From Actinomycetes bacterium (lineage in GTDB: Bacteria > Actinomycetota > Acidimicrobiia > Acidimicrobiales > Ilumatobacteraceae): 24,000 bases of DNA. The DNA is taken from positions 1 to 24,000 of the forward strand of contig JANYDH010000166.1 of the NCBI GenBank assembly GCA_025359865.1. Direction: 5' to 3'. Below are positions 775 through 24,000 of the stretch, piece by piece (the stretch's first letter is position 1; each line of letters opens with the position of its first letter). The notes under the pieces were generated by a model that did no database searches, was not told the origin of the DNA, and saw nothing but the letters and a program-made list of their open reading frames with translations. The position numbers and the translations under genes are program-made.

Positions 775-3441
775 CTAGCCGCCCTGCGGGTTGGAGATCC
801 GCCACCGGTATTCGTTCTTGTCCAGTCGGTACACGATGTCGGTGGTGTTCTGATCCCAGTCGCGAGCCAACCAGCAGATCTCGCGGCTTGCCGACCCGGT
901 TTCGCCGAACACGGGTTCGCTGGTGGCCCGCCCGGTCGTGACTGCCAGATCAGGGTTCGCGATCCGCGCACCGTAATGCAGTGACACCTCGGCCGGCACG
1001 AACCCCAATGGGCCAAGGCCCTGCACGTCGAACAGCACACACAGATGACCGAACCCGGTGACCGGGTCGCGAGGCGTGATCCGCGACCCATCGACCACGA
1101 TCGAATCATCGAGGCCCGGAAGTGGCGGCGACGTAGTTCCCGGCGGCGACGATGTCGGTGGCGCTGTCGTTGCTGGTGCGGCCGTTGTGCTGGTGGTGGT
1201 TGCCGGTGTTGCGACGATCTCGGAGTTGCGTCGGCCGACCAGCACGATCACCGCCCCCACACCGGCCGCCACCACAAGCACTCCGAGCAAGAACTGAGGC
1301 ATCCGGGTCTGACGTTGCCGCGGGTACGTCTCCAGTGAAAGCGGGCGCGGTGGCGGCGCATCTCGCCCCGCTCCCAGCGAACGTCGCGCTTCGAAGCCAG
1401 CGCCCTTCAGCACGTCGAGTAAGGCATCACTGCGGGCTTCGGAAATGAGTTGGCCCAGTTCAGCGGCAGCGATCGGTGGCGTGCGCCTGGCGAGGCGAAC
1501 CGGCTCGGGACGAAACAGACCATGTCCGGTGGGGGCCTGGAGCACCCGGGGGTCGATCGGTAACTGGAACACTGGCGGGGCCAGGGTTGGCTCATCCAAC
1601 TGCGTTTCGACCTGATTCAGCGCCCAGATCAGGTCGTCGACCGAATGCGGGAAATCGGAATCGCGGCGGGCCATTCGCGACCGTTGTGCAAACGCCCGTT
1701 CAGCGGCAGGGCGATCTGCGTTGCTCGGTAGGCCGAGGATGAGATACGGCTGGCGTCGCGCTCCAAATGCTTCCGTGGCGTTGACGACGCCAAGATTGGA
1801 CTTCAACTTCTCGTCGTCATTGTCCAGCGAAGCCGAGAGCAACGATTGCCGAGCGTCTTGATCCCGACCCAGGAGCCAATGCGTACAAGCCAGCATGTTG
1901 TGAGCTTCGGTACGGGCAGGCCCGAACTCCGCAAGCCGCAACGCCTGTTTGCCGCAGGTCATCGCCCCGTGCAGGTCCGATGCCCACAAGCAGCGCTGCG
2001 TGCGACGAGCCGCCCACCACGCGAGGAACCTTCGCGCCGACCCGCCTTCCGGAGGGTCCCATGCGAGCGCTTCTTCGGTGAGGATCCGCTCAAGTAGACC
2101 CCACAGCGACTCATCGTCGGTGATCAGGTCACCCAGGTTGTCGACTGTTGGCGTGGCGAGAAACTCGGCAAGCACGTCGACGACTGGGCCTCCGACGTCG
2201 CGGAGAAGGTCATTCGCTTTGTGCTCGGCGACGAGTGTGCGAATTGACGCGATCAACGCGCTGTCAGGTCGGGTGGGCGACGGATCTGGGATCCGTCCGG
2301 CAAGCAGCACTCGTCGGTCACGTTCCTGTTCGAAATCGAGCATGTCGACTTCTTCATCGCTGAGCGCCAGCGGGTCGGTCCTGGCGGCGACGTAGGCGAC
2401 CCGCTCGCGATCCATCATCCGCAACGACTCGTCAGCAATGTGGAACTCGCGCTCGAGCAGGTCGTCGATGACCGAGAGCGGCACCTTGGCCGGCAGCTGT
2501 ACCGGTTCTGCCCGATCCCCCGCACCGGCCAACGCACGCAACGTGGTGACCGCAACAGAAGCAAACCCAACGGGAAGGGTAGCGATGGCGTCGAACGGTT
2601 CGGGCTTGGCCAACCATTCGACGAGCGGCGAACTTCGCCCCGACACTTTTGCGGCACCAGCCAGCGGCGACGTCGGCTCAACTGCCAGTAGTCGCTTTTC
2701 GAGCACCCCTCTCGCCCGGCGACCGGTTGCGGCGATCGGTGCGCCGGTACACAACACCAGCAGCCCCACCGCGGGCGCATACCTGCCGAGCGGGAGTTGA
2801 CCGAGGTGTTCCACAGCCTGGTCGAAGCGCTGAACGCGCAGATCTGCCAATGCAGACCACCAATGGATTTCGGCCGCCGACAACGGCAGCTGACCGATCG
2901 GAGCAGAGACCCCTACCGCAGCAAGATCCGCGGCCACACGGCGGGCGTAGTCGAGCCTGCCGCCTACAAATGTGGAAACGAGGATGCCGCGGGTTGCCAC
3001 CGACGACGTGAGCACAGGAAGCGGGAGGTGTTCCAGCGCGACGAGTGCGGCCCCCAGCCGGGACGACATCGCCGACAGGCCACGCACGCGTGTGAAATGT
3101 CGAAGTTGGCGCGCCGGGATCTTGCGTACCAAGCCGTTCTCGGTGAAAAGCGTTGCGCCGTGGGGGCTGTCGACCACGGCGATTGCGGCCCTCGAGCCGC
3201 GACCCCCGCCGAGGTACCCGACGCTAAGCGTTTCATCGGTGATGTCCTCGGCAGGTGCCATCGCCAGCGAAACACCACACAACTGACATGCCGCCTCGGC
3301 ACCCACGGGTGTGCCAGCGACCGCACTCGCGTCAACGCCCGCGTCAACGCCCGCGCCTGCGACGGGGTCAAGGACGGTCTTGAGCGCCCAACCGCATGCG
3401 AAGCACATCGAATTTTCACTCTGAAGGTCGGGTCCTTCCAT
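775..3441 (-). CDS. Large hypothetical membrane-anchored protein (888 aa): N-terminal CxxC...CxxC zinc-ribbon-like motif, helical/TPR-like region, J-domain-like segment lacking HPD, one TM helix, Thr/Pro-rich linker, about 110-aa C-terminal extracytoplasmic domain
   Basis: ORF with an ATG start and GC3-rich codon usage. CFAC(aa 13-16)...CQLC(aa 52-55). Aa 565-594 read PYLILGLPSNADRPAAERAFAQRSRMARRD, which resembles J-domain helices I-II but has RRD where HPD is expected. RQRQTR followed by MPQFLLGVLVVAAGVGAVIVLVG (aa 714-736) indicates a positive-inside TM helix. This is followed by TPATTTSTTAAPATTAPPTSSPPGTTSPP. Confidence 0.75.
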   Translation of the reverse strand: MEGPDLQSENSMCFACGWALKTVLDPVAGAGVDAGVDASAVAGTPVGAEAACQLCGVSLAMAPAEDITDETLSVGYLGGGRGSRAAIAVVDSPHGATLFTENGLVRKIPARQLRHFTRVRGLSAMSSRLGAALVALEHLPLPVLTSSVATRGILVSTFVGGRLDYARRVAADLAAVGVSAPIGQLPLSAAEIHWWSALADLRVQRFDQAVEHLGQLPLGRYAPAVGLLVLCTGAPIAATGRRARGVLEKRLLAVEPTSPLAGAAKVSGRSSPLVEWLAKPEPFDAIATLPVGFASVAVTTLRALAGAGDRAEPVQLPAKVPLSVIDDLLEREFHIADESLRMMDRERVAYVAARTDPLALSDEEVDMLDFEQERDRRVLLAGRIPDPSPTRPDSALIASIRTLVAEHKANDLLRDVGGPVVDVLAEFLATPTVDNLGDLITDDESLWGLLERILTEEALAWDPPEGGSARRFLAWWAARRTQRCLWASDLHGAMTCGKQALRLAEFGPARTEAHNMLACTHWLLGRDQDARQSLLSASLDNDDEKLKSNLGVVNATEAFGARRQPYLILGLPSNADRPAAERAFAQRSRMARRDSDFPHSVDDLIWALNQVETQLDEPTLAPPVFQLPIDPRVLQAPTGHGLFRPEPVRLARRTPPIAAAELGQLISEARSDALLDVLKGAGFEARRSLGAGRDAPPPRPLSLETYPRQRQTRMPQFLLGVLVVAAGVGAVIVLVGRRNSEIVATPATTTSTTAAPATTAPPTSSPPGTTSPPLPGLDDSIVVDGSRITPRDPVTGFGHLCVLFDVQGLGPLGFVPAEVSLHYGARIANPDLAVTTGRATSEPVFGETGSASREICWLARDWDQNTTDIVYRLDKNEYRWRISNPQGG

Positions 3442-3543
3442 TGCTCCCCAATGGGTTCGTCAGACGGCGGGACACTAATCGACTACAGCGCGGTTGAAGC
3501 TACCAATCATCATTGTTGGTTCGAGCGGGGTCGTCCCGAATAC

Positions 3544-4278
3544 TTACACGACCGTGACAGCGAACCGTCCAATGCCGGCGAACACTGCAGCGGCAGCCTG
3601 CATGTCGGCAGCTGATGCCTCGTTCAGCTCCGGCATCATTGGCCGGACCCCGTGACACCGGAACCCGATCAGCTTGACCCGCATCGCCGGGTCGACGGCG
3701 GCCAGCCAGGCCGCTGTGCGGTGTAAGAGCGCGGGATTGTCGTTGACGCCGGGCACGAGTAGCAGTCGAACCTCATAGAGCCGACCAGCGCGCTGAAGGT
3801 ACCGGATCGACTGCAGCACCTGATCGTTCGGCTGGCCCGTCAGGCGATAGTGGATCTGCGGATCAAGGCACTTCAGGTCGACCATCGCCCCATCCATCAC
3901 GGGGAGCAGATCGTCCCACGTACGCTCATCAGCCGCTCCATTGGTGTCGACGAAACAGGTCAGCCTCTGCAAGCCGGCGTCGTGGTTGATCGCAGTGAAC
4001 AATGCCCCGACGAACGACGCCTGCTGCGTCGCCTCTCCTCCCGACACCGTGATGCCTGACAGAAAGGGGGCCGCTTGCCCAATCTGTGTGAGGAGTGACT
4101 CGATGGTCCTCAGGCGGGCTTTCGACGCACCATCGATCGGACAGGCGATCGTTTGCGGGTTGTGGCAGGCGACGCAGTTGAAGTTGCAACCCTGGAGGAA
4201 CACCACGAACCGGTTGCCAGGCCCGTCCACACAGGAGAACGAGACGGTGTCAGCGACGAAGCCGTGGAGCGAGCTCAT
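3544..4278 (-). CDS. Glycyl-radical-enzyme activating enzyme (radical SAM, PflA/YjjW-like), 244 aa
   Basis: From the internal ATG at 4278 the protein reads MSSLHGFVADTVSFSCVDGPGNRFVVFLQGCNFNCVACHNPQT, which contains the CX3CX2C radical-SAM cluster motif at the N-terminus as in GRE activases. ITVSGGEAT matches the GGE SAM-binding motif. The size fits the family. The 130 upstream codons of the 374-aa track ORF overlap the preceding gene out of frame and look like non-coding translation. Confidence 0.85.
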   Translation of the reverse strand: MSSLHGFVADTVSFSCVDGPGNRFVVFLQGCNFNCVACHNPQTIACPIDGASKARLRTIESLLTQIGQAAPFLSGITVSGGEATQQASFVGALFTAINHDAGLQRLTCFVDTNGAADERTWDDLLPVMDGAMVDLKCLDPQIHYRLTGQPNDQVLQSIRYLQRAGRLYEVRLLLVPGVNDNPALLHRTAAWLAAVDPAMRVKLIGFRCHGVRPMMPELNEASAADMQAAAAVFAGIGRFAVTVV

Positions 4279-5800
4279 GGCAGCCGACACGCTGTACAGC
4301 ACGTTCAGAGAGGTGGAAGGCGGCTTCCGACCCGGCCGCGAGGTAGTCGCTGGCGTGGCGCGCCCCAGATACGGCAATGTCGACGAGGTCGCGCTTGCGA
4401 ACGAGATAGCCGGTGATCCGGATGAACTCGTTCGAGTCCAGATTGAAGGTGAAGTCACGCATCCCCGACTCCAATGCCCCGCGGATGATGTCGACCACCG
4501 CCTGTGGGTTGCGGACCGCAGTCTCGTCGAAGTGGACGATGTCGCTGATACCAGCGGGAAACAGGCGGTGATGCGGTGCGCAGGTGGCGATGTGTTGAAG
4601 TAGCGGCGGTTCTTCGCCGACCGGGATGCGGGTGCCAGCAGTGACATTCTGGTCAAGATCGATGCCACCTTGGGAATGCAATGAGGCGGTTCCGTTACCT
4701 CCGGCGCAATACGGCTGGGGACGGGCCGCGACCAGTTCGGCCACCCGCTCGATCACGCGGTACGAGACCTGATCGGCGGACACGTCGTGTCCGTACCGGC
4801 CCGAGCCGCCCTCACATTCGATCAACCGGTTGACGGCTTCGGCCAGACCGAACACACCGAACATTGCCGTGAACCTGTCGATCGAGATCAATCCCTCCGT
4901 CGCCAGCCAATTCGTCTCGAAGAAGTGTTGCTGATCAACCAGGCTGCGCACGCGGGCCTCGATCAGTTCCGAGGTGAGCGCCACATACTGAGGGAGCGTG
5001 TCGGCGAGAAAGGCATCGACGCCGCCCGAATGACGCAGTACCACCTCGGCCAGATTCAGCCGCACGAGCGTGTGAGCGCCGCCTCCGATCTTCAGCGAGT
5101 TGTAACAGCTCACAGCGGCGTATCGCGGGCCGTGATCGCCGACCATCATCGGGTGATTGACGAAGTGAGGCTTCCCAGTCTCGAACACGGTGTGGACGGC
5201 GTCGAGCAGCAAGTCGTCCGGCGTCAGCAACGGATCGACTTTCAACGTGATGTTCGGCACCACTTGCCGCAGTGAACGCTCAACGCGCAGGATTGACCGG
5301 GTGATCCGGCTGTCGGTGGGGCCGAGATCGAGATGAACGAATGCATCAGGCAGCATCCGGTCGAGGCCGATCCAGAATCGGCGAAGCTTGTCATCCAATT
5401 GTTCGTCGGTGATGCCGTCGACGAACCGTGCAAGTACCTTGTCGAGGTCTCCCAAATACACCGGGTAGGTCGTCACCGACGGCACGTGGGTGTACATGAT
5501 CTGTAGGAACGCCAACGCGTCGTCCAAGACGAGTGGTGCATCGAGCTCGAGATGCTTCGACCCGTTGGCGAGCGCCAATTCGTAGTCGGGCAGCACGTAG
5601 CGCGGCGTGAAGGGAGCGTGGCCCTCATACAGGTCGCAGATCACTCGCTTGTCGAGCGCTTCGCGACATTCGGGCGACAACGCCGGGTAGTCGAGGGCAT
5701 CGGTCGCTAGCGCGGCCAACCGGCGAACCTTCTGGTCGTAGCCGAGTGCACCGTCTTGGACCAGCGCGAGTACCAGGTCGCGGAACTCGTTCATCTCCAT
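4250..5800 (-). CDS. Short glycyl radical enzyme, YjjI family (DUF3029-like), 516 aa
   Basis: The C-terminal segment FIRITGYLVRKRD matches the glycyl-radical motif R-[VI]-[ST]-G-Y-x-V-R of PFL-type enzymes. The gene sits immediately upstream of, and overlaps by 29 nt, a GRE activase. Its length of about 516 aa is typical of the YjjI clade, whereas classical GREs are 750-850 aa. Start chosen at ATG 5800 (MEMNEF...), preceded by GGAGGTGA with 4-nt spacing (7 nt after the GGAGG core). The track ORF begins at GTG 5845. Confidence 0.72.
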   Translation of the reverse strand: MEMNEFRDLVLALVQDGALGYDQKVRRLAALATDALDYPALSPECREALDKRVICDLYEGHAPFTPRYVLPDYELALANGSKHLELDAPLVLDDALAFLQIMYTHVPSVTTYPVYLGDLDKVLARFVDGITDEQLDDKLRRFWIGLDRMLPDAFVHLDLGPTDSRITRSILRVERSLRQVVPNITLKVDPLLTPDDLLLDAVHTVFETGKPHFVNHPMMVGDHGPRYAAVSCYNSLKIGGGAHTLVRLNLAEVVLRHSGGVDAFLADTLPQYVALTSELIEARVRSLVDQQHFFETNWLATEGLISIDRFTAMFGVFGLAEAVNRLIECEGGSGRYGHDVSADQVSYRVIERVAELVAARPQPYCAGGNGTASLHSQGGIDLDQNVTAGTRIPVGEEPPLLQHIATCAPHHRLFPAGISDIVHFDETAVRNPQAVVDIIRGALESGMRDFTFNLDSNEFIRITGYLVRKRDLVDIAVSGARHASDYLAAGSEAAFHLSERAVQRVGCHELAPRLRR

Positions 5801-5896
5801 CAGGTCACCTCCACGCATGCATGGACAACCAACATCAGCCGTCACTTCGACGCTACGACGCCCACGACAATGCGACCAGAGTCAAAGGTCACCACT

Positions 5897-5939
5897 GTCG
5901 TTGCCTGTGCCGTTGCCTGTGTCGTTGCCTGTGTCGTCT
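5897..5939. repeat. 12-nt tandem repeat, 3 full copies plus a partial copy (plus strand gtcgttgcctgt / gccgttgcctgt / gtcgttgcctgt / gtcgtct)
   Basis: Read directly from the sequence. It lies in the rpsG - GRE intergenic spacer. The mRNA-sense unit is ACAGGCAACGAC. Confidence 0.85.
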
Positions 5940-5958
5940 GGGCGAACCCAAACGACAC
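5931..5958 (-). terminator. Strong hairpin 6 nt after the rpsG stop codon: 12-bp stem with a UUCG tetraloop and no U-tract
   Basis: The minus-sense sequence is GUGUCGUUUGGG-UUCG-CCCAGACGACAC, giving 11 Watson-Crick pairs plus one G-U pair. The 3' arm is the first (partial) unit of the adjacent 12-nt repeat array. Without a U-tract it could be an mRNA 3'-end stabiliser or processing site rather than a classical intrinsic terminator. Confidence 0.4.
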
Positions 5959-5964
5959 GACCGG

Positions 5965-6435
5965 TTACCAGCGGTAGTGCGCGAAGGCCTTGTTGCTCTC
6001 GGCCATCTTCTGCATGTCGTCACGACGCTTGATCGCCGCACCGAGGCCGTTGGCCGCATCGAGGATCTCGCCGCCGAGGCACTCGGCCATCGTCTTTTCG
6101 CGACGCTTGCGGCTGAAGTCGACTAGCCACCGGATGGACAATGTGCCAGCACGTCGCGGGCGAACCTCGACAGGCACCTGATACGTGGCGCCACCGACGC
6201 GGCGGCTACGCACCTCGAGGGGCGGCTTGATGTTGTCGATGGCACGCTTGAGCGTGGCAATCGGCTCAGCACCAGACTTCTCTTCGACGATTTTCAACGC
6301 GTCGTAGACGATCTTTTCGGCAACAGTGCGCTTGCCGTGGAGCATGACCTTGTTGATGATCTGGGTGACCAACAACGAACGGTAGAGCGGGTCGGGAGTG
6401 AGCTCACGACGCTGGGCGGGACCTTTACGGGGCAT
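5965..6435 (-). CDS. rpsG: 30S ribosomal protein S7
   Basis: [44 protein letters not shown]...KAFAHYRW is a canonical S7 sequence from end to end. The gene lies directly downstream of rpsL. Confidence 0.97.
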
Positions 6436-6468
6436 CTGACATCACGCTTTCTTGGTCTCGACCGAGGA

Positions 6469-6840
6469 CTACTTGGCCTTCTTGGCGCCGTAACGGCTGC
6501 GGGCCTGCTTGCGGTTCTTCACTCCGGCTGCGTCGAGCGCGCCACGAATGATCTTGTAACGCACGCCCGGCAGGTCGCGGACGCGACCACCGCGCACGAG
6601 CACGATGGAGTGCTCTTGAAGGTTGTGGCCCTCGCCGGGGATGTAGGCGGTGATCTCGACACCGCTGGAGAGACGGACACGAGCCACTTTACGCAGCGCG
6701 GAGTTCGGCTTCTTCGGGGTGTTGGTGTACACGCGAGTACAGACGCCGCGGCGTTGCGGCGAACCCTTGAGTGCAGGAGTCTTGGTCTTGGAGAACTTGG
6801 TGCTGCGTCCCTGACGGACCAGCTGCTGAATTGTGGGCAC
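6469..6840 (-). CDS. rpsL: 30S ribosomal protein S12
   Basis: (V)[56 protein letters not shown] is canonical S12. The start is placed at GTG 6840, since S12 proteins begin MPTIQQL. The track ORF's 5 extra codons (MKGAC) are probably not translated. Confidence 0.95.
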
Positions 6841-6922
6841 GCATGCGCCTTTCACTGTGTTGAACTACGGTGGCCTGACGGCTACCTCGAGAGCACCGTT
6901 CACCGGCGCACAGGACCGTGTA

Positions 6923-7329: not shown

Positions 7330-11211
<3,882 letters not shown>

Positions 11212-15011: not shown

Positions 15012-15144
15012 CCGTCGACGGCCTTTGGCCGAACGGTTCATCCGATGGGAGAACGGTAAGCCCGAATCCGTCAGAAAGTCAAGGATTTCGATCCAATCCT
15101 CGACAACTGACGCGCCGGCTGGCGCCATCAGGCAGACTCAGATC

Positions 15145-16419
15145 ATGCAGGAGGCCGGCCCAGCGGGCGTTGATCACTGGTTGGCGATTCTCTCAGGCCC
15201 GCGCACCTGGATCGACGACGACGCCGGCCGGTCAGGCGTACAGCGACTTGCCGGGGGCCTGCAAATCCTGGCTGCGCTGTGCGCCTCCAGCGCTGTCGTC
15301 GCGCTGTGGGCCCGCAACAGGCCCGCTGGCACCCAGGTCGTGGCGCGCCTCGCCCCATTCGGACTGGGCTTGGCGATGGTAGGGATGATCGCTCGATCGC
15401 TCATCGAAGGGCTAGGCGTCGAGCGAACGGCATCGGCACTGTGGCGGAATGTGCCGACCCGTGGGCTTCTCGCGTTGCTGCTGTTGGGTTCGTTGTACGC
15501 AATGACGCCAGGCTGGCCGGCACTCGTGTCGTGGCCGCTCGGCGTTGCAATTGGCTGCGATGTTGCGGCAACAACTTCATTGATCGGCTGGACCTTGTCC
15601 CCGCTGGGGTGGTGGACAGCGTTCCTGCGTTCACCATTGCACCTCGGGGTGATCGGCGGACTCGTCGGCGCCGCCGTTGCCAACGACTCCGGCGGGACGG
15701 TCGCCAACGCGCTACCGGTGTACGCCGTGATCCAGACTTGGGTGTTCGTCGCGGCGATGACCATGTGGTGGCTCCGCCGGATCCGGGTATCGGAACGTAC
15801 CGGCGTGCTCGACGCGATCCGCCAGACAGCCCACCTCGAGCGACGACGAAGCGCTCACTGGTTGCACGACGATCTGCTCGCCGAGCTCCGCCTCGTCACG
15901 ATCAAGGTGCAAAGCGGTAAGGCCAACCTCGCTGAGGTGGAAGTCCTCCTCGACGACCTCGACTTTCAACTCCGCGTCCGCCAACTCGACCAATTGCTGG
16001 ACTCAGGAACGATCCGGGTCGGTGAGGCGCTGCAACCGTACATTCGTCGTGCTCAGAATTTCGGCGTCGAGATCGTGGCCGTGCCGTCATATGACACGGC
16101 GTCGCTGACGCTGGAGCCCGAAGCCGGCAGGCTGTTCAGCCATGCAGCCGCAATTCTCACGTCGAACGCACTCAACGCAGGCGCCCACCGCCTTGGCTTC
16201 CACATCGACGGGAACACATCGCTGCTCACCCTCACCATCACCGACGACGCCGGGGGCTTCGATGCCTCCGAACTTCCCGCCGGTCGCGGCTTGTGGACGC
16301 TCGCCCAGGATCTCGGCGCCACCAATGTGACTGTGCACCCCGTCGACGGCGGCAGTCGGGTCGAGGCAGTCATCCCGCTCCACACGAAACAAGATCATGG
16401 CGCAACTGCTGCTGGTTGA
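15145..16419 (+). CDS. Sensor histidine kinase, HisKA_3 (NarX/DesK-like) type, with a polytopic membrane N-terminus and no obvious periplasmic domain
   Basis: Several hydrophobic helices occupy the first ~230 aa. The H-box ERRRSAHWLHDDLLAEL is followed by a HATPase_c-like C-terminus (NALNAG...ITDDAGGFD...GRGLWTLAQ). Start chosen at ATG 15145. The track ORF start at 15025 is a TTG, and the true start is uncertain. Confidence 0.8.
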   Translation: MQEAGPAGVDHWLAILSGPRTWIDDDAGRSGVQRLAGGLQILAALCASSAVVALWARNRPAGTQVVARLAPFGLGLAMVGMIARSLIEGLGVERTASALWRNVPTRGLLALLLLGSLYAMTPGWPALVSWPLGVAIGCDVAATTSLIGWTLSPLGWWTAFLRSPLHLGVIGGLVGAAVANDSGGTVANALPVYAVIQTWVFVAAMTMWWLRRIRVSERTGVLDAIRQTAHLERRRSAHWLHDDLLAELRLVTIKVQSGKANLAEVEVLLDDLDFQLRVRQLDQLLDSGTIRVGEALQPYIRRAQNFGVEIVAVPSYDTASLTLEPEAGRLFSHAAAILTSNALNAGAHRLGFHIDGNTSLLTLTITDDAGGFDASELPAGRGLWTLAQDLGATNVTVHPVDGGSRVEAVIPLHTKQDHGATAAG

Positions 16420-17104
16420 CGACGCGAGTGCGCTCGCCGAACTCTTCGCGGACGTGATCCGCTCGACGCTCGGCCATGAGGTCGCCGTCGCCGTGACGCT
16501 GCGCGACGTGTCAGCCGTGCTCGGTCGGCTCTCTCGCCTCGATCTTGCTGTGGTCGATCTGTCGTTTCCACAGGAGCCGGGAAGCGGCCTCGATGCGCTG
16601 GTCGAGATTCACGCGGCGCGGCCCGAAGCGCTCCTCGCAGTCATCACCCAAGGCGATGACTGGGTCGCTGAACTCCTGCGCGATGCCTGGGAGCTGCTAC
16701 CGGTCGCCACCGTGATCTCGAAGAGCGCTCCGCTCGCGTACCAACTCGATGCGATCAGCCAAGTCATCGAGCACGGTTGCGCTCCAATCGACCCGGCGAT
16801 TCAGCCGTTGCTCCCGCTTCACCGGCCCTCGGCTCGTACCGTCGCTCGATTTGGCGAACTCGTTCAACATGCCGGGCACGCCAAGCTGTGGAACGCACTG
16901 CTCGCTTCGACCGACCCGTCATACAAGCAGATCGCTGACCTGTCCGGGTTGAAACTGAACACAGTGAAGAATTACCGCGTTCAACTGTTACCCGAACTCG
17001 AAGTCCACGGCTTGCACGAGCCGACTCTGCGCCAGATGCGCGACTTCGCGGTGCGCTGCAAAGCCTTTCTCACACCATTCCTCAACGTGGCCCCAACAGT
17101 GTGA
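16397..17104 (+). CDS. Response regulator: REC domain, extended linker and a C-terminal LuxR/NarL-like HTH
   Basis: LLLVDD, DLAVVDLSFP (phospho-acceptor Asp context), AVITQG and ISKS are REC landmarks. The C-terminal SYKQIADLSGLKLNTVKNYRVQLLPEL resembles a LuxR-type HTH. The ATG overlaps the kinase 3' end by 23 nt. Confidence 0.8.
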   Translation: MAQLLLVDDASALAELFADVIRSTLGHEVAVAVTLRDVSAVLGRLSRLDLAVVDLSFPQEPGSGLDALVEIHAARPEALLAVITQGDDWVAELLRDAWELLPVATVISKSAPLAYQLDAISQVIEHGCAPIDPAIQPLLPLHRPSARTVARFGELVQHAGHAKLWNALLASTDPSYKQIADLSGLKLNTVKNYRVQLLPELEVHGLHEPTLRQMRDFAVRCKAFLTPFLNVAPTV

Positions 17105-17463
17105 ACCGCTGGGTCACCTCGTCGATCGCCTTTTCAATCGGGCTCGGAGGTTCATTCGTGGCGTTCACCAGCAACGAGTCGACCCTCAACGCAGTCAACC
17201 AGGGCGCCAAGCTTGGCCCAGCAACGGTGACGAGCTACTGCCAGGAGCGATTCGGTTCAACCGGCTTCGGCGTGTTGCCGCTGCTGCCAACAGGCAGGTG
17301 GAGCTGTACGAGTGCGGTCAATGGGCTGTTCAACACCGTCGACGTCGACCTCGACGAGGTCTGTGGGCAGAAGTACGGCAAGCCGGCATACGCCGCAGTG
17401 TTCGATGCGTCCACGCCGTTCGGCTGGGACTGCCGTCGCGGCCAATCTCCAGCGCCGGGGTGA
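17101..17463 (+). CDS. Hypothetical small exported/membrane-anchored protein with 4 Cys (120 aa)
   Basis: The GTG start forms a GTGA overlap with the regulator's stop codon. There is an N-terminal hydrophobic segment (VTSSIAFSIGLGGSFVAF) and four spaced cysteines. I recognise no family. Confidence 0.55.
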   Translation: MNRWVTSSIAFSIGLGGSFVAFTSNESTLNAVNQGAKLGPATVTSYCQERFGSTGFGVLPLLPTGRWSCTSAVNGLFNTVDVDLDEVCGQKYGKPAYAAVFDASTPFGWDCRRGQSPAPG

Positions 17464-17503
17464 CCCACACACCTCGCCCGTCGTTAACTTGCCCGGCATT
17501 AAC

Positions 17504-19096
17504 TCAGCCTGCGGCATTGGCCTTTTCGAAGACGGCAATCAACTCATTTGCCTGGCGAGTCAACTGCACCAGCGTCTCATGCGCCGTGGTCGTTCCCGAG
17601 ACCAACGCTTCTGTCGCGGCGAAGAGCAATCGTTCGATCTCTTTGTCCGGGCCGTACAGCGCTCCAGCGGTCGCGTCGCTGCCTGAGGTGGAGACCAACT
17701 GGTCGTAGGCCACGCGGAACTGTGGATGCGCTGCCCAGGCGCGTTGCACCGAGGGGTCATCGGCGACGATTTCGCTCGGCGGAACGTAACCGGTAACAGC
17801 ATCGAGCGGGCCTAGGTGTTCCGGACGGACCAGCCACAGTGCAACGTCGTTCGCCGCGCCGACTCGTGACGGATCGCCGTTGTCGATCAGCCACAACGCG
17901 TTGCCTCCGACGAGAGCGCCCACGCCCGGCCCAGGCATAGGACCAACCCCAACCTCGATGCCAGGGAACGATCCCGACTCGACAAACTGGATGACATCAC
18001 CCAAAGAACCCGACGTGTGCACCACCATCGCGCCCCCGGAGGCGGGTGTCCCGACCTGGATCAGATCGTCATAGGTCGAGTTGTTCCCACCGATGAATTG
18101 CCCGTCGCCAGTGGCGACGAGATCGGACAGCCACTGCAGCGCCGTCTCGTTGTCCGGCGTCACATAGTCGACCGTTATCCCATCGCCATTTCGACCGTTG
18201 GCAGGGCTAGCGACGAGATCACCGCGTTGTGCTGACCACTGGTTGATGACCATCGAGGCGTACCAGGTGGTAACTACCATGCCAAAGGGTCGTGCGCCCG
18301 ACGTGACCAGCTGCCGAGACGCAGCGCGCACCTGCTCGAGGGTGGCTGGCGGATGCGCTGGATCGAGTCCCGCAGTCCGAAACGCCGCTGCGTCGAAGAA
18401 CAACACCGGTGTGGACACACCGTAGGGATACGCCTGCATCACGCCGCCGCTGCTGTAGGTCGCGGCGACGACCGGGAGCAGACCCGCGTTGATGTCCGCC
18501 TGCCCAGCGCACTCGCCTGGCGCAACCGTGAGGTTGTTCGTCATGAACCGTTTCATGGCCGACGGTGCTTGGATCACCAGATCTGGCCATGCCGAGCGTT
18601 CGGTCTCCGCGAGATGGGCCATGAGCGACTCGGAGCCGCCCTGCCAGGTGACCACCAGCGTGATGGAAGGGTGGGTGGCGTTGAACTCGGCCACCTGGCC
18701 ATCGAACGTATCGGGGCCCGCATAGCCACCCAACGAGTGCCAGACGCTGACGTCGGTATGGCCCTGCGCAGCTGAACACCGACTCGCTGCAGGCAACGCC
18801 GCTGTCTCGGGATCGGTTTCGGGCTCGGTTTGTTCCTGCGTGCCGTTCGGTTCGGTGGCGGTGGCCGGTTGGGCGTCGGTGGCCGGCATCTCCGGCGTCT
18901 CCGTCGTCTCGGTCGTCTCGGTCGGCGACGTTCGCGAAACGCTAGCGGTGGACAGATCAGCCCCCGGGGCCGAAGTACCACTGCCCGAACAGGCCACCAG
19001 GACAACGACGCCGAACAACCCCAGCGTCTTGTTCAAACGCACGCTACGAACTCGGTGGCGAGGCGTCGCTGCTACATCTCGGTGGTGCACGATCAC
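17504..19096 (-). CDS. ABC-transporter extracellular solute-binding lipoprotein (family 1, sugar/glycerol-phosphate-like); orphan, with no permease or ATPase nearby
   Basis: Lipobox LVAC within RLNKTLGLFGVVVLVAC|SGSG, followed by a TETTETTETPE-type low-complexity linker. The core contains YPYGVSTPVLFFDAAAFRTAGLDP, typical of SBP_bac_1 proteins. The track start is GTG 19096. GTG 19042 (VRLNKT...) would give a more typical signal peptide. Confidence 0.82.
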   Translation of the reverse strand: MIVHHRDVAATPRHRVRSVRLNKTLGLFGVVVLVACSGSGTSAPGADLSTASVSRTSPTETTETTETPEMPATDAQPATATEPNGTQEQTEPETDPETAALPAASRCSAAQGHTDVSVWHSLGGYAGPDTFDGQVAEFNATHPSITLVVTWQGGSESLMAHLAETERSAWPDLVIQAPSAMKRFMTNNLTVAPGECAGQADINAGLLPVVAATYSSGGVMQAYPYGVSTPVLFFDAAAFRTAGLDPAHPPATLEQVRAASRQLVTSGARPFGMVVTTWYASMVINQWSAQRGDLVASPANGRNGDGITVDYVTPDNETALQWLSDLVATGDGQFIGGNNSTYDDLIQVGTPASGGAMVVHTSGSLGDVIQFVESGSFPGIEVGVGPMPGPGVGALVGGNALWLIDNGDPSRVGAANDVALWLVRPEHLGPLDAVTGYVPPSEIVADDPSVQRAWAAHPQFRVAYDQLVSTSGSDATAGALYGPDKEIERLLFAATEALVSGTTTAHETLVQLTRQANELIAVFEKANAAG

Positions 19097-19607: not shown

Positions 19608-19621
19608 GATGGTTTCTCCCT

Positions 19622-19663
19622 TACGAATTGTTGACTACGAATTGTTGACTACGAATTGTTGAT
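19622..19663. repeat. 14-nt tandem repeat x3 in the rplJ-rplL spacer (plus strand tacgaattgttgac x2, then tacgaattgttgat)
   Basis: Read directly from the sequence. The mRNA-sense unit is (G/A)UCAACAAUUCGUA. The last copy abuts the rplL Shine-Dalgarno sequence (AAGGGAGAAACCAUCAUG). Confidence 0.9.
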
Positions 19664-19683
19664 GCAGCTGACCCGGGACGGTG

Positions 19684-21152: not shown

Positions 21153-21204
21153 TGCTGTCTCCCTCGGGTTGACGTCGGCCGGGCGAGGTGGTCCCAGTCC
21201 AAAC

Positions 21205-21326
21205 GTGGTGGTGTGATGTAGCGGTGTGATGTAGTGGTGTGATGTAGTGGTGTGATGTGGTGGTGTGATGTAGCGGTGTGATGTAGCGGTGTGATGTAGC
21301 GGTGTGATGTAGCGGTGGCTGATCAG
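21205..21326. repeat. 13-nt tandem array: 8 full copies plus degenerate flanking copies, filling most of the rplK-rplA spacer
   Basis: Plus-strand units start at 21210, 21223, 21236, 21249, 21262, 21275, 21288 and 21301. They read ggtgtgatgtagc (x5), ggtgtgatgtagt (x2) and ggtgtgatgtggt (x1). A degenerate 9th unit, ggtggctgatcag, contains the rplK stop codon. The period is not a multiple of 3. Confidence 0.92.
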
Positions 21327-22824: not shown

Positions 22825-22863
22825 GTACGGTGTCGCCTTTCCGGCGGTCCGGTGGGATCTGGG

Positions 22864-22936
22864 CAGGGCAGGAGGGACTCGAACCCCCGACCGTCGGTTT
22901 TGGAGACCGATGCTCTACCAACTGAGCTACTGCCCT
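22864..22936 (-). tRNA. tRNA-Trp (anticodon CCA), 73 nt; 3' CCA not exactly encoded
   Basis: Folded by hand. Acceptor AGGGCAG/CTGCCCT. D-stem GCTC/GAGC. Anticodon stem TCGGT/ACCGA with loop CTCCAAA. T-stem GGGGG/CCCTC with loop TTCGAGT. Discriminator G. Confidence 0.92.
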
Positions 22937-23195: not shown

Positions 23196-23213
23196 ATCAG
23201 GTTCTCCGTCTGG

Positions 23214-24000
23214 TCACTTGATGATCTTGGTGACGCGGCCGGCGCCAACGGTACGGCCACCTTCACGAATGGCGAAACGCAAACCCTCATCCATCGCGAT
23301 CGGCTTACCCAACTCCACCGTGATCGCCACATTGTCACCCGGCATCACCATCTCCGTACCCTCCGGCAACTGAATCGTCCCAGTCACATCAGTCGTACGG
23401 AAAAAGAACTGCGGCCGATAATTATTGAAAAACGGCTTATGACGCCCACCCTCACCAGACGTCAACACATACACCTGACCCTCAAAATTGGTATGCGGCG
23501 TAATACTCCCCGGCTTACACAACACCTGCCCACGCTCAACATCTTCCTTCTTCGTACCACGCAACAACGCACCAACATTATCCCCAGCCTGACCCTCATC
23601 AAGAATCTTCCGGAACATCTCCACACCAGTACAAACCGACTTCTGCGTAGTCCGCAAACCAACGATCTCCACCTCATCACCAGTATGAACACGACCCTGC
23701 TCGATCTTGCCCGTCACCACCGTCCCACGACCAGTAATCGTGAACACATCCTCAATCGGCATCAAAAACGGCTTATCCAACTCACGAACCGGCTGCGGCA
23801 CCGACTCATCACACGCCGCCATCAACTCCATGATCTTCTCCTGCCAAACAGGATCACCCTCCAACGCCTTCAACGCCGACACCCGAACCACCGGAGCATC
23901 ATCACCCGGGAACTCATACTCGCTCAACAACTCGCGAACCTCAAGCTCAACCAGCTCCAACAACTCCTCATCATCAACCATGTCAGCCTTATTCAACGCC
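23214..24000 (-). CDS. tuf: Elongation factor Tu, C-terminal ~260 codons; the gene continues beyond the window end
   Basis: (L)[47 protein letters not shown] ... [21 protein letters not shown] is canonical EF-Tu domains I (end), II and III. Codon usage is strongly atypical upstream of ~23280 (see findings). Confidence 0.97.

Follow-up and report, generated by a model that had tools for sequence, protein, structure and literature searches.

Synonymous codon usage poor in cytosine sets tuf apart from its neighbouring genes in an Ilumatobacteraceae contig and recurs in related Acidimicrobiia

The duplicate elongation factor Tu (EF-Tu) genes tufA and tufB of Salmonella and E. coli undergo concerted evolution (PMC5485169, PMC6053082), and the tuf genes of the Acidimicrobiia described here resemble them in that the two copies found in one relative (L177 and L178) are near identical over the coding sequence only and in that mosaic alleles occur. 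The location of one copy, after genes for tRNA-Thr and tRNA-Met and before secE-nusG-rplKAJL-rpoBC, likewise recalls the thrU-tyrU-glyT-thrT-tufB arrangement of E. coli. However, gene conversion explains the uniformity and the mosaics but not a coding sequence nearly free of synonymous cytosine (C), and one tuf copy is visible in the genome studied here. No comparable recoding of enterobacterial tuf was found in the literature searched, nor was any description of the pattern itself.

Strand asymmetries associated with transcription or replication, in which cytosine deamination leaves the coding or leading strand with an excess of G and T, have been reviewed (PMC2031905, PMC10030826). The tuf skew has the same sign (G and T abound on the sense strand and C is scarce) and affects a very highly expressed gene, but its GC skew of +0.4 to +0.5 stands against values below 0.25 elsewhere in the sequences scanned, except for one repeat spacer, and it is confined to one coding sequence in which the change at four-fold degenerate sites is mostly C to G. 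Codon bias in highly expressed genes is another familiar phenomenon, and the fitness effects of synonymous codons have been measured in Salmonella tuf (PMC4786093). Here too the bias of tuf is the strongest in its region, A-ending codons are missing and C is kept in the weakly pairing codons of Phe and Ile, but the bias is opposite to that of the translation genes of the same genomes and employs GAT, AAT, CAT, TAT and TTG; TTG and T-ending two-fold codons in a GC-rich genome are not predicted by ordinary tRNA-based optimisation. Among the activities that act on RNA, Rho loads on C-rich, G-poor molecules. In mycobacteria, RNase E cuts RNA directly on the 5' side of cytidines, and most mRNAs decay at a rate limited by this enzyme (PMC10641625). 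A C-poor, G-rich message would suit escape from either, and mycobacteria and Acidimicrobiia are both Actinomycetota; the likeness is one of logic only, and these specificities are known from organisms other than Acidimicrobiia.

The window (the whole stretch analysed, 24,000 nucleotides of contig JANYDH010000166.1) contains on its minus strand the 3' 787 nt of the tuf coding sequence (positions 23214-24000, including the stop codon TGA at 23214-23216), recognised from its intact translation and its homologues; this is the C-terminal two thirds of EF-Tu, the 5' part lying beyond the edge at 24000. A sequence-only reading of this DNA had described the protein as still an intact EF-Tu, and indeed the 261 codons are translated without a stop. 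The closest homologues (90-93% identity) are elongation factor Tu by their JGI names and carry PF00009, PF03144 and PF03143, so that the assignment rests on the GTPase domain, domain 2 and domain 3 in an intact frame. The top-scoring homologue (P0001) was set aside as uninformative, being an internally duplicated ORF of 450 residues on a contig of 2 kb (L174), probably the product of an assembly collapse. The 18-nt spacer downstream of tuf (sense strand ccagacggagaacctgat; 23196-23213, minus strand) holds a GGAG Shine-Dalgarno sequence for rpmG, which encodes ribosomal protein L33 (23031-23195, minus strand) and whose ordinary codon usage (C3, the share of C at third codon positions, 0.42; T3 0.09) marks the 3' limit of the recoding. 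The gene for tRNA-Trp(CCA) is located at 22862-22936 on the same strand, as part of the conserved gene order tuf-rpmG-tRNATrp-secE-nusG-rplKAJL. The window's own str operon ends at rpsG without a tuf gene, and a single tuf copy is visible. Exact searches aimed at extending the contig past 24000 had no match for nusG, and for rplK matched 1-kb contigs only.

The C-poor pattern of tuf in the window is real and highly significant. Wobble positions of the 240 codons at 23280-23999 (minus strand) comprise A 0.00, C 0.07, G 0.56 and T 0.36, compared with C3 of 0.31-0.51 and T3 of 0.09-0.24 in the 18 other window ORFs tested (when tuf was set against the other window genes in Fisher tests, p was 4e-34 for the C/T contrast and 2e-13 for the A/G contrast). 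The sequence-only reading had drawn attention to synonymous recoding of tuf, to the near-exclusive use of TTG for Leu and to a plus strand starved of G, and all three observations are borne out: TTG accounts for 18 of the 21 Leu codons (the others being two CTT and one CTG), the GC skew of the plus strand is -0.3 to -0.56 between 23250 and 24000, and the sense strand of tuf is 16% C and 38% G where that of rpoBC is 31.5% C and 30% G. The near-total switch from C to T that was also claimed is incomplete for Phe (TTC 7, TTT 4) and Ile (ATC 7, ATT 6), and the statement that G-ending codons are untouched proved wrong: G3 is raised, since C in the four-fold families gives way to G as well as T (C 0.08, G 0.63 and T 0.29 over Val, Ser(TCN), Pro, Thr and Ala). 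A-ending codons are essentially missing. Arg remains encoded by CGN and never by AGR, and thus the avoidance of C is not absolute. The residual C-ending sites of this segment are not clustered (runs test p = 0.71).

The recoding is limited to the tuf coding sequence and affects neither EF-Tu itself nor the flanking genes nor the leader. Within the window only tuf deviates in wobble composition; rplL, rplK, rplA, rplJ, rpmG and rpoBC have C/(C+T) ratios of 0.74-0.82 and rarely use TTG, in agreement with what had been read from rpmG, rplK, rpoB and rpoC by eye. Similarly, around the tuf genes of L177, L178 and L179 the neighbouring fusA, rpmG, rpsJ, rplKAJL and rpoB have ratios of 0.48-0.92 against 0.27 for tuf, and the 3' end of fusA directly upstream of tuf is normal in L103, L012, L099 and L091. 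Ribosomal-protein genes, rpoBC and fusA in fact run in the opposite direction to tuf (0.81-0.92), so other highly expressed genes do not share its usage and the view of tuf as a special case survives. In about 300 kb of related loci, an absolute GC skew of at least 0.25 over 300 nt was reached by tuf alone, with the sole exception of the AC-repeat spacer between rplK and rplA in the window. The leaders of tuf genes are rich in A and C, with GC skews of +0.10 to -0.33 that are negative in most loci.

The same pattern, in varying degree, was found in at least 20 independently assembled tuf genes of Acidimicrobiia, derived from short as well as long reads (L013, L103, L108, L175, L177/L178 and the intermediate genes). 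The extreme cases (the window, L175, L013, L103, L108 and L177/L178) have 75-93% protein identity to one another, and in a rough neighbour-joining tree of 261 EF-Tu residues they are spread over several clades, mixed with normal genes. A C-avoiding tuf is a lineage-wide trait in a set of Acidimicrobiia comprising Ilumatobacteraceae and relatives, and is no defect of one contig. Horizontal transfer from outside the lineage was rejected, as the recoded genes fall inside the EF-Tu diversity of Acidimicrobiia, in several sub-clades with 75-84% mutual protein identity. Falling genomic GC content was likewise rejected as a cause: the low-GC relatives L026 and L098 raise A3 and T3 symmetrically and still have C3 of about 0.42.

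The rule that emerges is avoidance of C in favour of any other base, and no mere C-to-T switch. In four-fold families, normal genes have C 0.63, G 0.35 and T 0.02, intermediate genes C 0.20, G 0.68 and T 0.12, and extreme genes C 0.05, G 0.64 and T 0.30, with four-fold G as high as 0.87 in L099 and 0.80 in L177; in the low-GC relative L179 the values are C 0.05, G 0.21, T 0.61 and A 0.14. The choice between G and T at these sites is nearly randomised between lineages while C stays absent in each. Thus, G takes the place of wobble C wherever a G-ending synonym is available, and T does so otherwise, and CTN codons of Leu give way to TTG, the fraction of which climbs from 0.06 in normal to 0.86 in extreme genes. 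This rise means that C is avoided at the first codon position too, and points to the nucleotide, more than to wobble decoding, as the target. Overall, C at codon positions 1 and 2 amounts to 0.175 and 0.242 in recoded genes versus 0.18 and 0.225 in normal ones, and the amino-acid composition of EF-Tu is unchanged.

Towards the stop codon the pattern ends within the gene. A sharp breakpoint had been placed at about 23280; there is a real change-point near the stop, but the best position for it is 23246/23247, 10 codons before the stop (permutation p < 0.0005), with C in 21 of the 114 C- or T-ending codons upstream and in all eight downstream. The last 10 sense codons (23217-23246, minus strand), GGC GCC GGC CGC GTC ACC AAG ATC ATC AAG, form a C-ending tail, recognised from the change-point and by comparison with relatives, and the codons at positions -11 to -21 from the stop (23247-23279, minus strand), CGT TTC GCC ATT CGT GAA GGT GGC CGT ACC GTT, form a mixed zone. 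L013 and L103 likewise have a change-point 9-10 codons before the stop, and the C-ending tail recurs, unchanged or almost so, in L175, L001/7/8, L060 and L091. The relatives with a change-point at this place are only 79-93% identical in protein sequence, and a change-point common to such diverged genes is for the most part no junction; rather, C-ending codons of the ancestral state persist over the last 10 positions, here and in relatives alike. Four of the eight tail sites are preceded by T or followed by A, a context that generally keeps C. We considered a conserved RNA element in the tail and rejected it, there being no consistent hairpin across relatives and no excess of synonymous conservation (0.67-0.81, versus up to 0.84 elsewhere in the gene). 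The C-ending state of these 10 codons is not accounted for by a model of selection on the tuf mRNA.

Whether the boundary arose because the gene recombined with, or was converted by, a paralogous or foreign tuf, as the sequence-only reading had proposed as one option, depends on what is known of recombination in this clade. Tuf alleles do recombine: the two copies L177 and L178 are separated by 35 kb on a single 3.57-Mb contig, are both recoded and differ at 1 of 1185 nt, their identity beginning at the ATG and ending about 17 nt past the stop, and seven intermediate alleles are mosaics of more and less recoded blocks (runs test p <= 0.017). Gene conversion thus holds both copies recoded where two exist, and more and less recoded alleles recombine into mosaics. 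In the window, separate comparison of the 3' end and the remainder of tuf did reveal a switch of nearest neighbour, though at about 23400 and not about 23280 (informative-site permutation p = 0.0008 against L001 and p = 0.013 against L007): the 3' 186 nt (23214-23399, minus strand) are 0.925 identical to the L001 type versus 0.866 to L175, whereas the rest is 0.890 identical to L175 versus 0.802 to the L001 type. The four C-ending codons of the mixed zone are common to the L001 type and T-ending in L175, the closest relative, and an L001-like segment of about 190 nt can account for them. The last 190 nt or so of the window's gene may therefore be a recombinant tract resembling a less recoded allele, a comparison confounded by the C/T trait itself in that the informative sites are partly the very sites in question, so that shared retention of C is difficult to separate from shared ancestry. 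Against recombination as the origin of the boundary, the pure C run of the last 10 codons, with the same change-point codon, is present in L175, L013 and others and so implies no junction peculiar to this contig, no second copy is visible and the window's str operon lacks tuf, and the C-free state of any tuf allele is left unexplained; we regard this origin as possible but doubtful. It is extremely unlikely that the contig instead joins the tuf genes of two organisms near 23280. Mis-joins across tuf do occur, since tuf is a 1.2-kb repeat in some relatives and one identical tuf occurs with each of the four possible flank pairings across different short-read assemblies, and the tuf of L174 is internally duplicated; but the recoding and the C-ending tail co-occur in many independent short- and long-read assemblies, including the 3.57-Mb contig, neither the pattern (at least 20 recoded loci) nor the change-point (L013, L103, and the tail of L175) is unique to this contig, the protein reads through intact, and the body of the gene is nearest to an Ilumatobacteraceae-type tuf, the lineage to which the flanking genes belong as well.

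Two further explanations concern the recoding itself. The third option of the sequence-only reading was strand-asymmetric mutation, by which a heavily transcribed or recombining tuf would lose sense-strand C to deamination whenever that strand is single-stranded, be it in the transcription bubble, an R-loop or a conversion intermediate, and purifying selection would leave only the synonymous C-to-T changes; positive feedback between R-loops and G-rich transcripts could give specificity for one gene. The excess of G over C and of T over A on the sense strand is as expected, the skew coincides exactly with the duplicated and converted segment in L177/L178, and the changes in two-fold pyrimidine-ending codons and from CTG to TTG are C-to-T changes. 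Deamination is nevertheless unlikely. C at four-fold sites is replaced first and mainly by G, a transversion, and the amino-acid composition is unshifted: codon positions 1 and 2 lose no C, even at 173 variable amino-acid columns, where drift at weakly constrained non-synonymous sites would be looked for. Nor does the skew extend over the whole transcript, as the transcribed leaders are C-rich and fusA, rpmG, rpsJ and the ribosomal-protein genes, which are probably transcribed together with tuf or expressed at similar levels, are not even partly affected. In addition, C is kept most after T and least after G, which is the order of the codon-anticodon strength rule established for highly expressed genes and probably not that of the 5'-neighbour preferences of known deaminases. 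A translational optimum specific to tuf, in which the tRNA pool or its modifications favour T- and G-ending codons for the most abundant protein, could draw on the facts that tuf alone in the window is strongly codon-biased (A3 0.00 versus about 0.10 elsewhere) and that C is kept mainly in Phe and Ile, as the same strength rule predicts. It is nonetheless highly unlikely, for the preferred codons are not common to other highly expressed genes in the window, L178 or L177, where the ribosomal-protein genes, rpoBC and fusA go the other way. A single tRNA with G34 normally reads both NNC and NNT, and the change from CTG to TTG, together with the use of G, T or even A as substitute according to genomic GC, fits avoidance of a nucleotide better than preference for a tRNA.

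We infer that what drives the loss of C is selection acting on the tuf mRNA itself, and neither a C-to-T mutation bias nor ordinary tRNA-based codon optimisation. As a whole, the proposal that the loss of C from tuf is lineage-wide, is driven by selection for an mRNA low in C and high in G, and is kept uniform between copies by gene conversion has in our judgement about an even chance of being right. Low C content may shield the very abundant tuf mRNA from a C-directed process, for which actinobacterial RNase E and Rho are the candidates; evasion of either could raise EF-Tu far above the products of neighbouring genes that are probably transcribed together with tuf, and gene conversion would pass the recoded state between tuf copies. 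The body of the message is depleted of C to the extent given above, consistent with evasion of this kind. In contrast, neither the mycobacterial RNase E motif RNCNU (z = +0.74) nor YC, the dinucleotide known to be bound by Rho (z = +1.55), is depleted in tuf beyond codon usage under synonymous-codon permutation. The C-rich, G-poor leaders also sit awkwardly with a model of pure evasion of RNase E or Rho, unless processing is meant to take place in the leaders. Weaker mRNA structure was rejected as the benefit: predicted folding energies per 120 nt are -31 to -37 kcal/mol for recoded genes and -44 to -45 kcal/mol for GC-rich normal ones, but recoded genes fold no less strongly than GC-matched controls with symmetrised wobble positions (e.g. 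-34.0 versus -33.7), and thus the skew itself brings no structural gain. Only tentatively, the pattern may be framed more broadly as a gene-specific, cytosine-free synonymous code that arose in several lineages under selection on the mRNA, renders tuf a poor substrate for RNase E or Rho, allows EF-Tu to be made in excess and spreads by gene conversion.

Some consequences are practical. The use of tuf as a marker gene, or as a reference for the codon adaptation index, would mislead in this clade of Acidimicrobiia, and as a 1.2-kb repeat tuf is a place across which short-read contigs can be mis-joined. More generally, codon usage in bacteria normally reflects a genome-wide mutation bias together with tRNA selection scaled to expression, and tuf runs counter to both here, in many lineages and in both copies. 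If selection at the level of the mRNA is the cause, these genes would constitute a natural experiment on how the specificity of RNase E or Rho feeds back on the coding sequences of Actinomycetota, and would suggest a rule for designing messages that are stable and strongly expressed in GC-rich hosts. If the cytosine-free code is real, it would represent a new route, readable from sequence, by which the specificity of a nuclease or a terminator shapes codon usage.

The tuf gene that runs off the end of the window (minus strand, stop codon at 23214-23216, open at the window end) encodes the C-terminal part of EF-Tu as an intact 261-codon translation, and its closest homologues (90-93% identity) contain all three EF-Tu Pfam domains. 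Between 23280 and 23999, the third-position fractions are A 0.00, C 0.07, G 0.56 and T 0.36, and 18 of 21 leucine codons are TTG, whereas the 18 other window ORFs that were examined, including rpmG (18 nt downstream of tuf), secE, nusG, rplK, rplA, rplJ, rplL, rpoB, rpoC, rpsL and rpsG, have C fractions of 0.31-0.51 and T fractions of 0.09-0.24. Tuf differs from all other window genes in C versus T (Fisher test, p = 4e-34) and in A versus G (p = 2e-13), and C and G make up 16% and 38% of its sense strand, compared with 31.5% and 30% in rpoBC. Arginine is still encoded by CGN. The sequence-only reading of this codon usage is borne out overall, with three corrections: not nearly every synonymous C has become T, as about half of the Phe and Ile codons keep C; G-ending codons are not untouched but increase, because C gives way to G as well as to T; and the statistical change-point lies 10 rather than about 21 codons before the stop codon (C in 21/114 C- or T-ending codons upstream and 8/8 downstream, p < 0.0005).

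To gather related loci, the rpmG product was looked up by exact match, the collection was scanned twice and a protein search was run. The lineage is the Acidimicrobiia, with Ilumatobacteraceae as the closest named genomes, and many of its tuf genes, from independent assemblies, are recoded as in the window. Extreme cases are L175 (third-position C 0.04, T 0.42; 93% protein identity with the window), L013 (C 0.09, T 0.44), L103 (C 0.08), L108 (C 0.07) and L177 and L178, two copies on one contig (C 0.11, G 0.60). L001-L010, L012, L060, L091, L093, L095, L099 and L101 are intermediate (C 0.20-0.37 where the reading frame is intact); L011, L016, L018, L020, L092 and L094 are normal Acidimicrobiia tuf genes (C 0.48-0.63). 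Several EF-Tu sub-clades of a rough neighbour-joining tree hold recoded genes, with normal genes in between, and protein identity among recoded genes is only 75-84%. The recoding is neither an artefact nor a one-off.

The recoding is strictly confined to tuf and to its coding sequence. In 300-nt windows across roughly 300 kb of related loci, an absolute GC skew of at least 0.25 was found in tuf alone, plus one repeat spacer of the window. C/(C+T) in L178, L177 and L179 is 0.27 in tuf and 0.48-0.92 in the adjacent fusA, rpmG, rpsJ, secE, nusG, rplKAJL and rpoB, and the 3' end of fusA is normal where it lies directly upstream of tuf (L103, L012, L099, L091). The leaders preceding tuf are rich in A and C and poor in G and T, the reverse of the coding sequence. 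A promoter-like motif, TTC(T/C)TTGACAAC(C/T)CACA, which includes a TTGACA -35-like hexamer, is conserved 35-45 nt upstream of the start codon (L175, about 9950-10000; L091, about 3545-3600; L012, about 5545-5600); its presence in the fusA-tuf spacer and in stand-alone contexts alike suggests that tuf has a strong promoter of its own.

A/C-rich tandem repeats also occupy spacers between translation genes (window 21153-21322, in the minus-strand sense, 19608-19683 and 5846-5964). Between rplK and rplA, a 13-nt unit, CACCGCTACATCA or CACCACTACATCA (C 0.44, G 0.14), is repeated about nine times; three copies of CAACAATTCGTAGT lie between rplJ and rplL and four of GACACAGGCAAC in the spacer after rpsG, and the tuf leader of the relative L013 contains (CAAGCAGCAA)n. 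Such repeats may act as leader or processing elements that lack structure.

The base that replaces C depends on the genome. At four-fold families (Val, Ser(TCN), Pro, Thr, Ala), C, G and T fractions are 0.63, 0.35 and 0.02 in normal, 0.20, 0.68 and 0.12 in intermediate, and 0.05, 0.64 and 0.30 in extreme tuf genes; G reaches 0.87 in L099 and 0.80 in L177, and L179, a relative with low GC, shows C 0.05, G 0.21, T 0.61 and A 0.14. The substitute follows genome GC, and C alone is excluded. That G is the first substitute argues against strand-specific deamination of C to T, one of the explanations offered from the sequence alone, as do the C-rich transcribed leaders, the lack of even a partial effect in adjacent genes that are likely co-transcribed or similarly expressed, and the unchanged C at codon positions 1 and 2 (173 variable columns included), with unaltered amino-acid composition. 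Ordinary translational optimisation is unlikely, since the same genomes' other translation genes prefer C to T and seldom use TTG, one tRNA normally reads both NNC and NNT codons, and CTG to TTG removes a first-position C. Reduced mRNA secondary structure was ruled out: controls of matched GC content, in which the wobble bases were symmetrised, fold no more strongly than the recoded genes. The four-fold choice between G and T is nearly random between recoded lineages, yet C is absent in each, which implies a force that persists and not one event passed on by descent.

The C-ending tail of tuf is common to relatives. C occupies 25/202 C- or T-ending codons before and 7/7 after a change-point 9-10 codons from the stop in L013, and 30/164 before and 5/5 after in L103; in L175, nearest to the window and the most extreme of the relatives, C ends 7/170 such codons in the body and 7 in the last 10 codons, and the tail opens GGC GCC GGC CGC GTC ACC AAG ATC as in the window. 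The tail is thus neither a contig-specific junction nor, as had been proposed, the mark of a chimeric assembly. C is retained more often with T before or A after (26% versus 6-14% otherwise in extreme genes; 78-83% versus 31-58% in intermediates), which accounts for half of the tail (GTC-A, ACC-A, ATC-A, ATC-A); the GGC GCC GGC CGC run falls outside this rule and is not explained by it. No hairpin consistent across relatives was found in the tail, nor any excess synonymous conservation at the tuf 3' end.

A separate comparison concerns the 3' end of the gene. The last 186 nt of the window gene are closer to the L001-type allele (identity 0.925) than to L175 (0.866), and the body is closer to L175 (0.890 versus 0.802), with a breakpoint near 23400 in an informative-site test (p = 0.0008 versus L001, p = 0.013 versus L007). 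Codons -11 to -21 from the stop form a mixed zone (23247-23279), where the four C-ending codons are also present in L001 and are T-ending in L175. A short recombinant tract at the 3' end is therefore plausible, but suggestive rather than proven because the informative sites overlap the C/T trait in question.

Exchange between strongly and weakly recoded alleles by recombination is part of the picture, as C- and T-ending codons are clustered in blocks in seven intermediate alleles (runs test, p <= 0.017); the same test found no such clustering in extreme alleles. A 3.57-Mb contig carries two recoded tuf genes (L177 and L178) on the same strand, 35 kb apart, one after tRNA-Thr and tRNA-Met and before rpmG-tRNATrp-secE-nusG, the other upstream of rpsJ; they differ at 1/1185 nt and are identical from the ATG to about 17 nt past the stop. 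The gene for a second EF-Tu protein, P0047, lies at 3001-4185 in each of L179-L183, with 2-8 nt differences between contigs, and across different assemblies occurs in all four combinations of two upstream (fusA, or YajQ plus an acetyltransferase) and two downstream contexts (rpmG-secE-nusG, or rpsJ plus a trypsin-like protease), which could be real rearrangement by recombination at tuf or short-read mis-joins at a 1.2-kb repeat. In L091, L103, L179 and L181, tuf connects the str operon with the secE-nusG cluster (rpsL-rpsG-fusA-tuf-rpmG-tRNATrp-secE-nusG); in L179 and L181 this order could likewise reflect mis-joins. L174, an NCBI contig of 2 kb (GCA_047520425.1), has a tuf ORF of 450 aa (582-1934) in which the region around residues 140-200 is duplicated as two different sequence variants; two tuf alleles seem to have been collapsed into one during assembly.

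The str operon of the window is truncated (3544-6855) and lacks fusA and tuf: after rpsL (6469-6855) and rpsG (5965-6435) comes a gene for a YjjI-like glycyl radical enzyme (4250-5845), which shares about 420 nt, read in a different frame, with a radical-SAM activase ORF (3544-4668). Unrelated genes (15025-19096) separate rplL from rpoB, with ORFs of 464 aa (no Pfam hit) and 120 aa, a weakly response-regulator-like ORF below the Pfam cut-off, and a 530-aa solute-binding protein.

Identity of two copies over the coding sequence only, together with the mosaics, amounts to classical tufA/tufB concerted evolution (PMC5485169, PMC6053082), and the tRNA-tuf-secE-nusG layout resembles the E. coli tufB operon (PMC6735719). 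Transcription- or replication-associated asymmetry has the sign of the tuf skew but not its size, sharp limits or C-to-G component. No description of tuf-specific C-free codon usage was found in the literature searched; we regard the pattern as a synonymous bias particular to one gene and shaped, on the favoured reading, at the level of the mRNA.

We give about even chances that selection at the nucleic-acid level, in general, drives the recoding, with cytosine in the tuf message being selected against; RNase E or Rho as the specific effector, the candidate C-directed activities in this phylum, is less probable. Rho loads on RNA rich in C and poor in G. In mycobacteria, RNase E cuts directly 5' of cytidines and is limiting for most mRNA decay (PMC10641625). 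Beyond what codon usage accounts for, tuf shows no depletion of RNCNU or YC motifs, and the C-rich leaders and C-ending tail would fit evasion of these factors only under extra assumptions. In L175, whose tuf is the most extreme in its recoding, a PemK/MazF-family endoribonuclease toxin gene (2128-2454) lies 7.5 kb upstream of tuf, which is probably incidental. On the candidate mechanism, a C-poor, G-rich tuf segment between C-rich spacers could outlive the neighbouring fusA, rpmG or rpsJ segments and the tRNA precursors upstream, and this longer life would account for the large excess of EF-Tu.
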